From positions 1 through 15,093 of the forward strand of contig CAZSTA010000078.1 in assembly GCA_964609495.1 (NCBI GenBank): a stretch of DNA of 15,093 bases. The letters are read 5' to 3'. The notes under the pieces are model-generated. The model saw only the letters and a program-made list of their open reading frames with translations. It was not told where the DNA came from and ran no database searches. Position numbers and translations under genes: made by a program. Origin of the DNA: an uncultured bacterium (lineage in GTDB: Bacteria > CAZSTA01). Below, piece by piece: positions 418 through 8,274 of the stretch (positions are counted from its first letter, which is position 1; the number at the start of each line of letters is the position of its first letter).

Positions 418-624
418 GTGGCAGTAACAACCTCAATGGCTCCTTCAGGGTTAGCAGAGGTTCTCGACCGTATCCTGGATAAGGGTATCGTACTCGATGT
501 TTGGGTTAGAGTCTCTCTACTCGGCCTGGAGATCCTTGCTATTGAAGCAAGGGTAGTTCTTGCCGGTGTCGAGACCTACCTGAAGTATGCTGAAGCGGTT
601 GGCTTAACAGCTCCAGCAGCCTAA
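418..624 (+). CDS. gvpA: Major gas vesicle structural protein GvpA
   Basis: GTG start with SD AGGGGGTG 7 nt upstream. The protein contains [52 protein letters not shown], the canonical GvpA core. An ATG at 436 is an alternative start. Confidence 0.95.
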
Positions 625-1449: not shown

Positions 1450-2504
1450 TGACTATCGGTCCTGGGATGAGAGAACTTGTGCAGGAAATTACCTCTTCCC
1501 ATAAGGAAAGAACAGAAACAGTTAAGGGAATAAGGGAGGAGGCAAAGCAAATGAGGGAAGAAGCAATGGATTTAATTAGAGATTTTCAAACTACCCGAAG
1601 TAATGAGAGCGTTCAGTTAAAGGAGGAGTTAACAGAGGGAAAAAGAGAAAGGAGCTCTCTTGTTAAAGGGATGCTAGAGGATTTTCAGAATTCAAGGGGA
1701 GAAGAAGCTACTCAAATGCGTAAAGATTTAGCTCAGGGAAGTAGCGAACGTCGTTCTGAAGTTGAGAAATTACAAGAGGATGCCCGGCAAAGCATAAAAG
1801 ATTTTCACGCCCAGCGTAAGGAAGTGGGTACTCAGTTGAGAAAGGATCTTTCTACAAGCACAGCCAATAGAAGATCTGAAGTAAAAGCACTGCTGAGTGA
1901 TGCTCAGGAAATGATAGGGGGATTCCAAAGTTCAAGGGGAGAGGCGAGTTCTGAATTGAGGAAGGAACTTTCTCAGAGCGTATCCAATAACAGGGCTGAG
2001 GTGGAAGACCTCAGGAGAAACGCTAAAGCGTTAGTAAAAGATTTTAATAACACCCGTATAGAGACAGGCAAAGAATTGAAGAATGAACTGACTAAGGATA
2101 AAGCTGAGAGATTATCTGAAGTTAGAAAAATGCGGGATGATTTTCGTAGGATACGCTCGGAAGTGAGAGCAGACTTAAAAGAGGTAGCGGTAGCCTGGCA
2201 GGGATTAACAAAACCTGTAGAAGTAAAGGAAGTTGAAGTAGAAGCTCCTCCCAAAGAAGCAGAGGTTCCTATAGAAGAGGAAACTCCAACGGTAGAAGAA
2301 GTAGTTTCCGAGGAAGGAGAACGGGATTTTGAGTCAGAACTTTTAGCAATTGTCAATCGACATCCCGAAGGAATAACCCTTGTGGAATCAGCTGAGAGAT
2401 TAGGTGTCGCTTCTGTCGTTCTTGGACGAGCCTCTAAGAGTCTCTTGGACAGTGGGAAGATTCGTAAGGAAGATAGATTCTACTTCCCGGTAACAAGCGA
2501 GTAG
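1449..2504 (+). CDS. GvpC-like repeat protein with at least five ~40-aa repeats (DFxxxRxExxxxLRKxLxxxxxxRRSEVxxL) followed by an acidic linker and a C-terminal winged-helix (BirA/MarR-like) domain.
   Basis: Repeats are visible in the translation: DFQTTRSNESVQLKEEL.., DFQNSRGEEATQMRKDL.., DFHAQRKEVGTQLRKDL.., GFQSSRGEASSELRKEL.., DFNNTRIETGKELKNEL... The C-terminus LLAIVNRHPEGITLVESAERLGVASVVLGRASKSLLDSGKIRKEDRFYF fits a winged-HTH pattern. Position directly downstream of gvpA matches where gvpC sits in cyanobacteria and haloarchaea. No direct sequence identity to known GvpC is claimed. Confidence 0.7.
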   Translation: MTIGPGMRELVQEITSSHKERTETVKGIREEAKQMREEAMDLIRDFQTTRSNESVQLKEELTEGKRERSSLVKGMLEDFQNSRGEEATQMRKDLAQGSSERRSEVEKLQEDARQSIKDFHAQRKEVGTQLRKDLSTSTANRRSEVKALLSDAQEMIGGFQSSRGEASSELRKELSQSVSNNRAEVEDLRRNAKALVKDFNNTRIETGKELKNELTKDKAERLSEVRKMRDDFRRIRSEVRADLKEVAVAWQGLTKPVEVKEVEVEAPPKEAEVPIEEETPTVEEVVSEEGERDFESELLAIVNRHPEGITLVESAERLGVASVVLGRASKSLLDSGKIRKEDRFYFPVTSE

Positions 2505-2511
2505 TGATATT

Positions 2512-2913
2512 ATGAAAAGTGAAGCTCTAACAAAAGTAGGAACAGGACGTCAAATTAAAACTGGTCTTGACCTTGCAAGGAGTCAGAGTCAGAGGATAAG
2601 AACTGCCAACTCCCTTTCCCAACCGAAGGAAACTTTTGAATATCTTCAGCACCTAACCGACAGGGATGTGAAAAAGGAACTGCAGAGGGAGAAGATACGT
2701 TTTGCTACTCAGGATGCAGCAGTAGAAAAAGTAAGACGTAGAATTAGTGAATTAAGAGAAAATTTGGCGCGGACTATCAATAGAAACAGAGCTCTTACTG
2801 AATTAAGGCATGAGCTACAAAAGGCCAGATGGGAGGGTAGGGACCCAGTACCGGCGGAGAAAGAAGAGTCAAACCCTGGTCAAAAATTAAATCAGATAGA
2901 AGTGCGATATTAA
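2512..2913 (+). CDS. Hypothetical basic coiled-coil protein of 133 aa.
   Basis: Open frame with a weak RBS. Arg/Lys/Glu-rich helical composition and no recognisable family. Co-oriented within the cluster. Confidence 0.45.
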   Translation: MKSEALTKVGTGRQIKTGLDLARSQSQRIRTANSLSQPKETFEYLQHLTDRDVKKELQREKIRFATQDAAVEKVRRRISELRENLARTINRNRALTELRHELQKARWEGRDPVPAEKEESNPGQKLNQIEVRY

Positions 2914-3138
2914 TATTCGCTCATATTGGAGTAGCGTGCTTAGCTAAAGATGTCTTTATTTCATAATCACCCTCCCCTAAACCCCTCCCATCGAGGGAGG
3001 GGAAAATGGGAAGACAGTTCTATCTGGATGTCCCCTCTCCCCTCAGTGGGAGAGGGATAGGGTGAGGGTGAAAATTATTTCTTTCGCTCATTAGATCAGT
3101 CTAGCGCACCTTATGCAAATATGAGCGTTAATATTAGA
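2911..3138. repeat. A 228-bp MITE/REP-like structured element. Terminal inverted repeats TAATATTCGCTCATATT (2911-2927) and its reverse complement AATATGAGCGTTAATATTA (3118-3136) enclose an inner imperfect inverted repeat (2967-2984 / 3054-3071) and two GC-rich hairpins: CCCCTCCC-atcga-GGGAGGGG (2982-3002) and CCCTCTCCC-ctcagt-GGGAGAGGG (3033-3056).
   Basis: Nested inverted repeats read directly. The GC-rich poly-C/poly-G tracts stand out in an AT-rich intergenic region between ORF-133 and gvpN. A third partial copy of TTCGCTCAT lies at 3084-3092. Confidence 0.5.
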
Positions 3139-3152
3139 AGAGGAGGAGGATT

Positions 3153-4055
3153 ATGCAGGAAGAGCCCACAGTGCTTACTGCCCAACCAAGTGCTGATTTT
3201 GTAGAGACACCTTATATAAAGGAGCTAACAAGTCGGGCTATCGACTATATCAGAGCTGGTTTTCCCGTACACTTCAGCGGCCCAGCAGGGGTAGGAAAAA
3301 CTACATTAGCTTTACATATGGCTGCTAAGCTGGGCCGCCCGATTATATTAATCGGTGGAGACCACGAATTTAATAGTTCTGATCTAGTTGGTGGACTCTA
3401 CGGCTATCGTAGAAGATATACAAAAGACAATTTTATCCGCTCAGTTCTCAAGACTGATGAGAGTATGACTTCCCATTGGATAGACAATCGTCTCACGGTT
3501 GCATGTCAACGTGGACTTACCCTTATCTATGATGAGTTTACCAGATCACGACCAGAGGCAAATAACGTGTTACTCTCTATATTAGAAGAGAAGCTCCTTC
3601 CCCTGCCTGCCGCTAGAGGAGGAGAGAATTACTTAAGGGTACATCCCGATTTTGCAGCTATATTTACCTCTAATCCTGAAGAGTATGCTGGAGTTTACAA
3701 TAGCCAAGATGCCCTACGTGACCGTATGATAGCTATAGAACTGGGTAATTTTGATGAGGAAACAGAAGTTGCTATTACCCAGGCAAAATCTAAGCTTCCC
3801 TTAGAAGACGCCCAGCGGATCGTTAATCTGGTGAGAAAAGTTAGAGAGGTTAAATCGAACAAGCTTACCCCTACCGTAAGAGCATGCATTATGATGGGAA
3901 AGGTATTGAAGTTAAAGGGTGCATCAGCTTTCAGTTATGACCATACTTTTAAGCAGATCTGTCAGGATATCCTTATGCCTGAGATTCCCAAGGAGGAGAG
4001 AGAAAAAATAAGAGAGGTGATAGAGGATGCTCTGCTACTTAAAGGAGGATCATAG
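3153..4055 (+). CDS. gvpN: Gas vesicle AAA+ ATPase GvpN
   Basis: Strong SD AGGAGGAGGA precedes the start. Walker A FSGPAGVGKTTLALHMAAKLGRP and Walker B LIYDEF are present. Size (300 aa) and motif spacing are typical of GvpN/CbbQ-type AAA_5 proteins. Confidence 0.9.
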   Translation: MQEEPTVLTAQPSADFVETPYIKELTSRAIDYIRAGFPVHFSGPAGVGKTTLALHMAAKLGRPIILIGGDHEFNSSDLVGGLYGYRRRYTKDNFIRSVLKTDESMTSHWIDNRLTVACQRGLTLIYDEFTRSRPEANNVLLSILEEKLLPLPAARGGENYLRVHPDFAAIFTSNPEEYAGVYNSQDALRDRMIAIELGNFDEETEVAITQAKSKLPLEDAQRIVNLVRKVREVKSNKLTPTVRACIMMGKVLKLKGASAFSYDHTFKQICQDILMPEIPKEEREKIREVIEDALLLKGGS

Positions 4056-4203
4056 TTTCGCAGTTTTTGAAGATACTAAACTGAAAACTCCGTTTCCAAG
4101 TGGAATTAAGTCTATACTCAGTAGATCGCAATGCTAATATTTTATTCACTAAAGGATACATTTTGTGGTTAAAAATCGTCGAACTTTTTTAGAAAAGGGC
4201 TTG

Positions 4204-4236
4204 TTTTGTCCAGATTTTGCAGGAAAAAGGACAAAA
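4204..4236. promoter_or_regulatory. Perfect 8-bp inverted repeat TTTTGTCC-N17-GGACAAAA in the 374-bp AT-rich region upstream of hsp20/cdc48. The spacer contains TTTGCAGGA, the same 9-mer that lies inside the flank-repeat promoter core (20-28 and 14100-14108). A small hairpin TTTTGC-gga-GCAAAA lies at 4290-4304.
   Basis: Read directly from sequence. The operator-like geometry suggests binding by a dimeric HTH regulator. Function is inferred. Confidence 0.35.
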
Positions 4237-4429
4237 ATTATCCACCTTTGTGATCTAATGATACTTCGTATTAGCTCTGCATAACCGTATTTTGCGGAGC
4301 AAAACCAAATATTTTGGGATAGAGGAGGATATGTGTAACAAATTCTGCAAAAATTCTTATTAATAGTAGATTTTTGTATTTATGCTAAGCATAATTGAAA
4401 AATCTGTGAAAGTATAGAGGTGATAGTAT

Positions 4430-4927
4430 ATGGCTGAAAAGGAAGAGAAGGATAGAATTGAGATAGACTTTTTTGGGGGACTCTTTAAAGAGATTGGGAA
4501 CCTTATTGATCGTGCCTCCAAGATGGGGGAGGAAGGATTTGAAGAAACAGGGGAGATAAAATTCCCCAAGGGAGGTAAGGCAGTATATGGTATTAGTGTA
4601 AGGACTCTAGCAGGTAAGCCAGTAATAGAGAGATTTGGGAATGTGAAGGAGACCTCTAAAGGTCCAGTGGTGGAAGAGGTTAGAGAGCCAATCGTTGATG
4701 TTTTTGACGAAAAAGATCATATCCTTGTTATTGCTGAATTGCCCGGTGTATCGGAAGAGGATATAAAAATCGAAGTTTCTGGAGATGTTTTTAACCTTAC
4801 CGCCTCTAGTAAAGGTAGGAAATATGCTAAGGAGCTCCTTCTGCCGGCTAAAGTAAAAGCAGAGCCCCTTAAGAGTTCCTACCGGAATGGAATTTTAGAA
4901 ATTACATTGGAAAAGATAGAGAGCTAG
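4430..4927 (+). CDS. Hsp20/alpha-crystallin-domain small heat-shock protein (GvpH-like)
   Basis: SD GAGGTGA precedes the start. The alpha-crystallin-domain signature VDVFDEKDHILVIAELPGVSEEDIKIEV...YRNGILEITLEK is present. Haloarchaeal GvpH is Hsp20-family (established knowledge). Confidence 0.85.
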   Translation: MAEKEEKDRIEIDFFGGLFKEIGNLIDRASKMGEEGFEETGEIKFPKGGKAVYGISVRTLAGKPVIERFGNVKETSKGPVVEEVREPIVDVFDEKDHILVIAELPGVSEEDIKIEVSGDVFNLTASSKGRKYAKELLLPAKVKAEPLKSSYRNGILEITLEKIES

Positions 4928-7925: not shown

Positions 7926-8165
7926 ATGCTTGGACTCTCACTTTTATATGATATTTTTATAGGTGTTCCCTTTACCCTTGGAGTGAAAATACTGGAGAAA
8001 CTGAGGGATGAGATAGATAAGGAGCGCCTTATAACGGAAGATTCGATCAAGAAGAGGCTTCAGCAGCTACAACTATTGTTACAGGATGGAGAGATAAGTG
8101 AGGAAGAGTATGAAGAGTTAGAAGCTAAACTTATTGAAAGACTAAGAGCGGTAAAGGGAATATAG
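7926..8165 (+). CDS. gvpG: Gas vesicle protein GvpG
   Basis: A 79-aa protein with a hydrophobic N-terminus LLYDIFIGVPFTLGVKILEKL and the C-terminal EISEEEYEELEAKLIERL motif typical of GvpG. Confidence 0.8.
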   Translation: MLGLSLLYDIFIGVPFTLGVKILEKLRDEIDKERLITEDSIKKRLQQLQLLLQDGEISEEEYEELEAKLIERLRAVKGI

Positions 8166-8251
8166 TCAATGACCCCGCCCATGAAGGGCGAGGCTTGAGG
8201 GATCAAGCCTACGTTGACTAAGGGTAAGAGTTTCCGCCGACTAGTCTTTTT
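8163..8251 (+). promoter_or_regulatory. Structured intergenic element. A 7-bp outer inverted repeat TAGTCAA/TTGACTA (8163-8169 / 8214-8220) encloses two hairpins, CGCCC-atgaa-GGGCG (8176-8190) and GCTTGA-ggga-TCAAGC (8193-8208). The palindrome GACTAGTC followed by T5 lies at 8239-8251.
   Basis: Inverted repeats read directly. Same architecture as the 2911-3138 element (an outer inverted repeat around two GC hairpins). Probable RNA-stability or attenuator element between gvpG and gvpJ. Confidence 0.35.
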
Positions 8252-8274
8252 ATGAAAGTTAAGGAGGTAAATAA

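Follow-up and report, generated by a model that had tools for sequence, protein, structure and literature searches.

The window analysed here is a contig of 15,093 bp from an uncultured bacterium of the CAZSTA01 lineage (CAZSTA010000078.1), which carries one gas-vesicle gene cluster. Between ORF133, an upstream open reading frame (ORF) of the gas-vesicle (gvp) operon, and gvpN it holds a 210-bp non-coding element that we consider, with high confidence, to be a MITE (miniature inverted-repeat transposable element), i.e. a non-autonomous element derived from an IS1595-family insertion sequence common in Chloroflexota. The element shows conserved family termini and is flanked by an 8-bp duplication, copies of the family occur in related genomes, autonomous IS1595 partners share the same termini, and the orthologous spacers are short. 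A MITE was also among the candidates proposed by an earlier reading of the sequence alone (hereafter the sequence-only reading), and the same observations uphold that identification. There is good support for an origin by transposition; what the element does to the operon is something we infer.

Boundaries, termini and insertion site

The junction between ORF133 and gvpN is occupied by a long imperfect palindrome with two internal, nested G/C hairpins. The ends of the element, CGCTCATATT (2918-2927) and AATATGAGCG (3118-3127), form a perfect inverted repeat of 10 bp that extends to 22 nt with 77% complementarity, and directly outside them stands an 8-bp direct repeat, TTAATATT, which is perfect, 100% A/T and nearly palindromic. 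Because of this last property the direct repeat resembles an extension of the inverted repeat. An inverted repeat of 19 bp with an indel was rejected, because the family data presented below place the end of the element at CGCTC. The length is thus 210 bp, or 226 bp counting both copies of TTAATATT. The sequence-only reading had delimited a MITE-like element of 228 bp at 2911-3138, with terminal inverted repeats of about 19 bp, the left one overlapping the ORF133 stop codon and the right one ending 15 nt before gvpN. The nested palindrome and hairpins that it described are real and an inverted repeat does close the element; its limits have to be redrawn, with the outer TAATATT assigned to the 8-bp duplication and what follows to the true terminus. 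The stop codon consequently sits in the left duplication copy instead of in the inverted repeat, and on the other side it is the right duplication copy that comes closest to gvpN, ending 17 nt upstream of its ATG.

Two further properties of this stretch concern its coding capacity and the specificity of its ends. No ORF of at least 50 amino acids was found within 2918-3127, and the family-terminus pattern, allowing up to three mismatches, was found in the window at 2918-2939 on the plus strand and at 3106-3127 on the minus strand only, with 0 matches expected from 200 shuffles. The internal direct repeat of the left end (D2 in Table 1) makes positions 3085-3127 read as a 43-nt mini-palindrome, CGCTCAT...ATGAGCG, which may be the relic of a nested or rearranged copy.

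Comparison with related clusters places the insertion in a junction that is otherwise compact. The gene order of the window was found again in six related loci, none of which has the element at the orthologous junction. The upstream gene of the relatives, a 131-amino-acid orthologue of ORF133, ends in ...RY* as in the window, and in four of the six (L045, L048, L051 and L053) the spacer that separates the orthologues of ORF133 (131 or 133 amino acids) from gvpN measures 24-28 nt. When the element and one repeat copy (2918-3135) are taken out of the window, the spacer reads TAA-tattagaagaggaggaggatt-ATG, i.e. 21 nt.

Related elements and their autonomous partners

The family was delimited with a terminus scan of 185,579 species-representative genomes, using the pattern CGCTCATATTKGNNTANNGTGC, which fits both arms of the element. 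This yielded 44 loci, about three quarters of them in Chloroflexota: 18 are contigs of Chloroflexota bacterium Dive96_bin3.112, and the other Chloroflexota loci belong to Caldilineaceae, Caldilineae, Anaerolineae, Ardenticatenaceae and Dehalococcoidia. Most of the remaining loci lie in unrelated phyla and consist of one match without a partner, at about the level expected by chance for some 17.5 specified bases. When forward and reverse termini were paired, 24 elements of 55-784 bp resulted, of which 12 are flanked by perfect 8-bp duplications (8/8) and 15 by duplications of at least 7/8. With the right flank moved by 1-20 nt as a control, duplications were found in 0 of 24 at every offset. 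The duplicated sites of the family are 74% A+T, and positions 1, 2, 7 and 8 are nearly always A or T.

What the window copy and the subfamilies have in common are only the termini of about 22-25 nt, with the consensus CGCTCATATTGG.ATA..GTGC. The interiors differ in sequence, all of them being G/C-rich nested palindromes, and every member folds as one long hairpin. The commonest subfamily found, in Dive96_bin3.112, is 164-168 bp long and has at least six near-identical copies (L012, L020, L029, L036, L043), each with a different perfect 8-bp duplication and with the interior palindrome TAGGGGCGAGGC...GCCTCGCCCCTA. A blastn search of a plasmid collection returned no full-length relative, only the inner triplex hairpin (see below) being matched, in Proteobacteria. 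No published description of this Chloroflexota IS1595/MITE family was found in the searchable literature.

Concerning autonomous partners, a 1117-bp element in an Anaerolineae genome (L010 7048 to L035 164, JAGGZG010000166.1) has the same termini as the MITE. Two overlapping frames in it encode Zn_ribbon_IS1595 (PF12760, E 4.9e-07) and DDE_Tnp_IS1595 (PF12762, E 4.9e-30) domains, and its transposase matches NCBIfam NF033547. The split of the frame lies near a Gly/Arg-rich stretch and reflects either a pseudogene or a mistake in assembly. When the transposase sequence was repaired and used for a protein search, uninterrupted homologues of 341-345 amino acids with the same domains (precomputed) were retrieved, and in five fetched loci intact single-ORF transposases lie in elements of 1108-1125 bp with CGCTCATATTG at both ends and the transposase stop codon inside the right terminus. 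One intact transposase occurs on 7 contigs.

These properties agree with what has been described for IS1595 elements. Members of this family have, as a rule, 8-bp duplications at their flanks, and they show a zinc-ribbon plus DDE layout (PMC8101967), and ISEc69 was shown experimentally to make A/T-rich duplications of 8 bp in which positions 1, 2, 7 and 8 are 100% A/T (PMC7835479). The window copy shares the A/T-rich 8-bp target duplication with ISEc69 and with the IS1595 family (Siguier et al. 2009, as cited in PMC8101967), and the partners share the architecture, namely about 1.1 kb with a single transposase carrying an N-terminal Zn_ribbon_IS1595 and a C-terminal DDE_Tnp_IS1595 domain between the MITE termini. 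Unlike IS1595 elements, the window copy has no transposase and about one fifth of their length, and it would be movable only with a transposase supplied in trans. The closest parallel is the ISHwa6-derived IS1595 MITE of Haloquadratum walsbyi, with 165 bp, a 25-nt inverted repeat and an 8-bp direct repeat (PMC3852290): both are short and non-coding, with termini of about 22-25 nt shared with an IS1595 element and an 8-bp target duplication, and the Dive96_bin3.112 subfamily is also close to it in size. The Haloquadratum MITE is found in a haloarchaeon, whereas the window copy belongs to Chloroflexota, has another terminus sequence, is 210 bp long and contains two triplex motifs.

On this basis, an IS1595-type DDE transposase supplied in trans would have recognised the termini of about 22 nt, CGCTCATATTGG.ATA..GTGC, and cut the two strands in a staggered manner at TTAATATT, a target of A and T only within the short ORF133-gvpN spacer, where the uninterrupted junction would have read ...GTGCGATATTAATATTAGAAGAGGAGG...; the 210-bp element would then have been inserted, and repair of the cut would have duplicated the 8-bp target. 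Since the duplicated target holds the ORF133 stop codon, which the retained repeat copy preserves, and since the gvpN ribosome-binding site lies untouched downstream of the insertion, neither gene was disrupted and both are intact. Once inserted, the element would most probably be co-transcribed in the gvp operon as a passive, strongly folded passenger, and no strong polarity would be expected from it.

Several points weigh against the MITE interpretation or narrow the evidence for it. The multi-copy evidence comes from other genomes, the window contig itself not being among the 44 loci; no second copy of the window subfamily was found, its interior matching nothing in the fetched loci, and metagenome scans with the internal 20-mer GCGTGCTTAGCTAAAGATGT and with the exact left terminus CGCTCATATTGGAGTAGCGTGC gave 0 matches each. 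The logo of the termini is partly fixed by the search pattern itself, and position 11 of the right terminus of the window copy is T where all other termini of the logo but one have G. Moreover, no clean duplications were seen around the 1.1-kb elements in metagenome contigs. This is probably caused by assemblers joining flanks across a multi-copy repeat: L056 and L057, from two assemblies, contain one and the same IS1595 element and differ in its partner flanks, and the right flank of L056 equals the left flank of L057, with the same 8-mer AACCGATT, which fits a single insertion with flanks that assembly linked to other copies. Finally, the ORF131-gvpN spacer is also expanded by unrelated sequence in two of the six relatives, to 88 nt in L050 (1423-1510) and to 171 nt in L046/L047 (5830-6000 in L046). 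A long spacer alone is therefore no proof of this insertion, and the two cases suggest that the junction tolerates or attracts small insertions.

Table 1. Coordinates and properties of the element, its parts and the neighbouring genes in the window.
Feature	Position	Strand	Remarks
MITE body	2918-3127	.	210 bp, non-coding; bounded by two family-terminus matches
Left terminal inverted repeat	2918-2939	+	CGCTCATATTGGAGTAGCGTGC; one mismatch to CGCTCATATTGGNATANNGTGC
Right terminal inverted repeat	3106-3127	-	minus-strand reading CGCTCATATTTGCATAAGGTGC; one mismatch to the family pattern
Left target-site duplication copy	2910-2917	.	TTAATATT; adjoins the family-defined terminus; contains the ORF133 stop TAA (2911-2913)
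Right target-site duplication copy	3128-3135	.	TTAATATT; identical to 2910-2917
BoxC/PIT/TM-type triplex motif (predicted)	2970-3002	-	CCCCTCCC-TCGAT-GGGAGGGG-TTTA-GGGGAGGG; third block a perfect mirror of the second
BoxC/PIT/TM-type triplex motif (predicted)	3033-3068	+	CCCTCTCCC-CTCAGT-GGGAGAGGG-ATA-GGGTGAGGG; perfect 9-bp hairpin
Internal repeat of the MITE left end	3083-3091	+	TTCGCTCAT; direct repeat D2
gvpA	418-624	+	gas-vesicle cluster of the window
Three ORFs between gvpA and gvpN	718-1449, 1449-2504, 2512-2913	+	243, 351 and 133 amino acids
ORF133, upstream gvp-operon gene	2512-2913	+	undisrupted; C-terminus ...VRY* matches the ...RY* end of the orthologues
gvpN ribosome-binding site and start codon	3139-3155	+	AGAGGAGGAGG + ATG (3153); outside the insertion; unpaired in the predicted fold
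gvpN	3153-4055	+	gene directly downstream of the element

Triplex motifs, folding and alternative explanations

The two inner G/C hairpins have the sequence organisation of BoxC/PIT/TM intrastrand-triplex motifs and are predicted to be two such motifs in inverted orientation, in each of which short loops separate a pyrimidine block, the purine block complementary to it and a purine block that mirrors the latter. The nested inverted repeat is seen because the two motifs face each other. In a triplex-motif scan the plus-strand copy was recovered with 0 mismatches in blocks of 8 nt and the minus-strand copy in a slightly shifted register; the hairpin of the latter appears in both the predicted RNA and the predicted DNA folds. 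Positions 3022-3080 match unannotated repeats of E. coli with 81.5% identity over 54 nt; 5349 of 5426 complete genomes of this species contain them, at a median of 6 places each, and the plus-strand motif stretch has further matches at multi-copy sites of Azospirillum and Klebsiella replicons. At the level of the motif, the plus-strand copy is near-identical to the E. coli BoxC/PIT/TM copies (CCCCTCGCCCCTTCGGGAGAGGGTTAGGGTGAGGGT in E. coli, CCCCTCTCCCCTCAGTGGGAGAGGGATAGGGTGAGGGT in the window). Within the paired members of the MITE family, the scan found 0 other elements with an internal triplex motif. An inverted BoxC/TM pair is also present in a related gvp cluster (L046/L047, 7656-7742), in the spacer between Hsp20 and Cdc48 and without IS1595-type termini, and the loop and block CCCTCGATGGGAG are common to its minus-strand copy and the minus-strand motif of the window.

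The triplex motif was previously described from E. coli and cyanobacteria. According to Holder et al. 2015 (PMC4666352), the E. coli motif DNA forms a stable triplex in vitro, and nuclear magnetic resonance showed a triplex and not a G-quadruplex; a control oligonucleotide used there has the same three-block layout as the window motifs, and RNA is stated to be unable to form purine-type triplexes. The sequence-only reading had regarded the G-rich arm as possibly prone to G-quadruplex formation. The corresponding pattern (four tracts of at least three G, loops of 1-7 nt) does fit GGGAGAGGGATAGGGTGAGGG (3048-3068, plus strand) and GGGAGGGGTTTAGGGGAGGG (2970-2989, minus strand), so that the observation stands at the level of sequence, and the structure is better called a putative BoxC/PIT/TM triplex, given the result for the E. 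coli homologue. Unlike the described BoxC/PIT/TM(ECO), the window has two inverted copies enclosed by a transposon, in a genome of Chloroflexota, with the triplex itself predicted; word searches of PMC4666352 showed no link of the motif to MITEs and no mention of Chloroflexi.

As in the other family members, the predicted fold of the element is one long hairpin, with -93.4 kcal/mol for RNA (z -5.9) and a z of -6.3 for DNA; 0 of 200 shuffles folded as well. The sequence-only reading judged the composition very atypical for an AT-rich sequence, which holds for the G/C tracts, all three window matches to GGGWGRGGG lying inside the element (0.7 expected), but not for the overall G+C content, barely raised at 0.45-0.465 compared with 0.42-0.43 in the flanks.

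Four other explanations of these data were weighed against the MITE. Of these, the one that retains a small but appreciable probability takes the BoxC/PIT/TM pair (2967-3071) as the primary entity, with a spread of its own, which would have been inserted secondarily into an older and simpler MITE, or next to which the terminal repeats would be incidental. The wide distribution of the motif in E. coli, Azospirillum and Klebsiella, the pair outside any IS1595 MITE in L046/L047, and the lack of an internal motif in every other paired family member speak for such independence. The termini and the 8-bp duplication, however, obey the IS1595 family rule exactly, so the transposed unit is the MITE; around the pair within the MITE there is no insertion signature, and a G/C-rich palindromic interior is the norm in all family members and not an intrusion. 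A somewhat less probable proposal, which would add to the MITE origin and not replace it, is that the insertion was exapted as an RNA-level regulator in the operon. The hairpin of about -90 kcal/mol would then act like REP/BIME or Correia/ERIC sequences, blocking 3'-to-5' decay of the gvpA...ORF133 message or attenuating read-through, and would set different expression of the structural genes on the one hand and of gvpN and the downstream assembly genes on the other. In favour of this are the position of the element, which falls precisely on a junction within the operon and lies on the transcribed strand immediately upstream of gvpN, its very stable predicted RNA structure, the independent expansion of the same junction in two relatives, and the precedent of intra-operon MITEs such as Geobacter's Chunjie (cited in PMC10969869). 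In the minimum-energy fold of 2880-3190 the gvpN ribosome-binding site is also unpaired, and the C-rich arm at 2962-2978 is 82% complementary to 3139-3155, which would allow an alternative, sequestering fold; sequestration of the site by this arm was not adopted, as the minimum-energy fold leaves it free. Against exaptation, the element is unconserved, four of the six relatives having a bare spacer, the plus strand shows no terminator-like site, and the introduction of PMC4666352 mentions earlier work that reported BoxC/PIT to be without promoter or terminator activity. A REP-like effect on mRNA stability or a partial attenuation is possible and receives no support from conservation.

The terminator, REP-like and structured-RNA alternatives of the sequence-only reading come off less well in these comparisons. 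In the region 2400-4600 no plus-strand intrinsic terminator was detected, the hairpins being followed by AAAATGGG and ATAGGG with no T-run, and no plus-strand promoter is predicted, only a weak promoter-like site on the minus strand inside the element. Like REP/BIME sequences and intrinsic terminators, the element presents G/C-rich extragenic hairpins at a gene junction that could stabilise upstream mRNA. REPs are units of 20-40 nt, mostly with a GTAG or CGTC head (PMC3733652), and have neither terminal inverted repeats nor target duplications; the window hairpins, in contrast, start with CCCCTCCC and CCCCTCTCCC, lack those heads, and belong to an element that has both terminal repeats and a duplication. 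That the region is a conserved structured RNA of the gas-vesicle cluster (a leader, riboswitch or small RNA) is very improbable: its strong predicted structure, with a z of about -6, would fit, but any long inverted repeat would give such a structure, the element is absent at the same junction in the six related clusters, and it has 0 Rfam matches at the gathering score, the best sub-threshold hit reaching 31.9 bits against a threshold of 72 and the matches with E<1 being only miRNA-precursor-like hairpins far below threshold. A chance inverted repeat in the intergenic spacer is hardly credible at all. Its only footing is that TTAATATT is A/T-rich and near-palindromic and occurs 4 times in the window where 1.9 are expected, while two 22-nt matches to the family terminus are found against 0 expected, the duplication exactly adjoins them, and the 8-bp duplication rule of the family holds with none of the shifted controls reproducing it. 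As regards function, a co-transcribed passenger would be the most economical reading, as described for Chunjie of Geobacter uraniireducens (Chen et al. 2008, as cited in PMC10969869), which likewise lies between operon genes and spares their reading frames. Chunjie was recently active and is unrelated to the window element, having a different sequence, and the window copy is known from sequence alone.

The gas-vesicle cluster and significance of the insertion

All genes of the cluster lie on the plus strand. After gvpN follow Hsp20, a Cdc48-like AAA ATPase, gvpF/L, gvpG and a GvpA/J-like gene, and 3' of the latter gvpK, gvpF/L, another Gas_vesicle-domain protein and gvpO. The three ORFs at 718-2913 gave no meaningful match to Pfam, the 351-amino-acid ORF reaching EutK_C only below threshold; their position and size are kept in every related cluster (226/331/131 amino acids and similar). 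The nearest GvpN relatives are about 80% identical, and those with names are Chloroflexota and Dehalococcoidales metagenome-assembled genomes. A cyanobacterial origin, hinted at by the G/C hairpins, was dropped, as Chloroflexota is where the MITE family and those GvpN relatives that bear a name are found. No transposase is found on the 15-kb contig.

Two other spacers of the cluster are of unusual length. The one between gvpN and Hsp20 (4056-4429) has 374 nt with 31-34% GC, and neither terminal repeats nor an ORF were seen in it; at this position the relatives have 13 nt (L051, L053), 46 nt (L046) or a gvpO gene (L045). Judged by its sequence, it may represent the remains of a gene or a further insertion. 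Between gvpG and the gene that follows it, the spacer (8166-8274) has 109 nt, compared with a 1-nt overlap or a distance of 3 nt in L045 and L046, and contains, at 8163-8220, what the sequence-only reading took for a smaller element of the same architecture. The structure is real, a 58-nt three-way hairpin, TAGTCAA...TTGACTA, with a predicted RNA energy of -30.8 kcal/mol (z -5.3) and the gvpG stop codon TAG in its left arm, but all that it has in common with the MITE is a generic outer stem with two hairpins. It carries no IS1595-type terminus, triplex motif or 8-bp duplication and has no relative in the fetched loci. From its sequence it looks like a second, unrelated small insertion, and the TA at either end (TA...TA) may have arisen by duplication of a TA target; no further copy came to light.

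The MITE accounts for the unusual gap of 239 nt in a gas-vesicle operon whose genes are elsewhere closely packed, and annotators should be cautious not to call this gap a regulatory RNA or a terminator. It also uncovers an abundant IS1595/MITE family of Chloroflexota, defined by the terminus CGCTCATATTGG.ATA..GTGC and 8-bp A/T-rich duplications; such repeats break up metagenome assemblies and are usable as strain markers. For gas-vesicle synthetic biology it is of interest that the flanking genes are apparently intact despite a strongly structured insert of 210 nt just 5' of the gvpN ribosome-binding site.

The less ordinary point is the BoxC/PIT/TM pair carried as cargo: the motif's known range now takes in Chloroflexota, and the motif is found within a mobile shell. 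Subfamilies may be built around, or may capture, a palindrome abundant in the host, here the BoxC/PIT/TM triplex motif. On this reading, to which we give only a low probability, the MITE family would be a vehicle for G/C-rich, structure-forming palindromes; it would be compatible with a co-option of the insertion by which the structural gvp genes are expressed separately from gvpN and the assembly genes. If the vehicle reading is true, hitch-hiking on IS1595-type MITEs would be one route by which near-identical triplex motifs spread within genomes.

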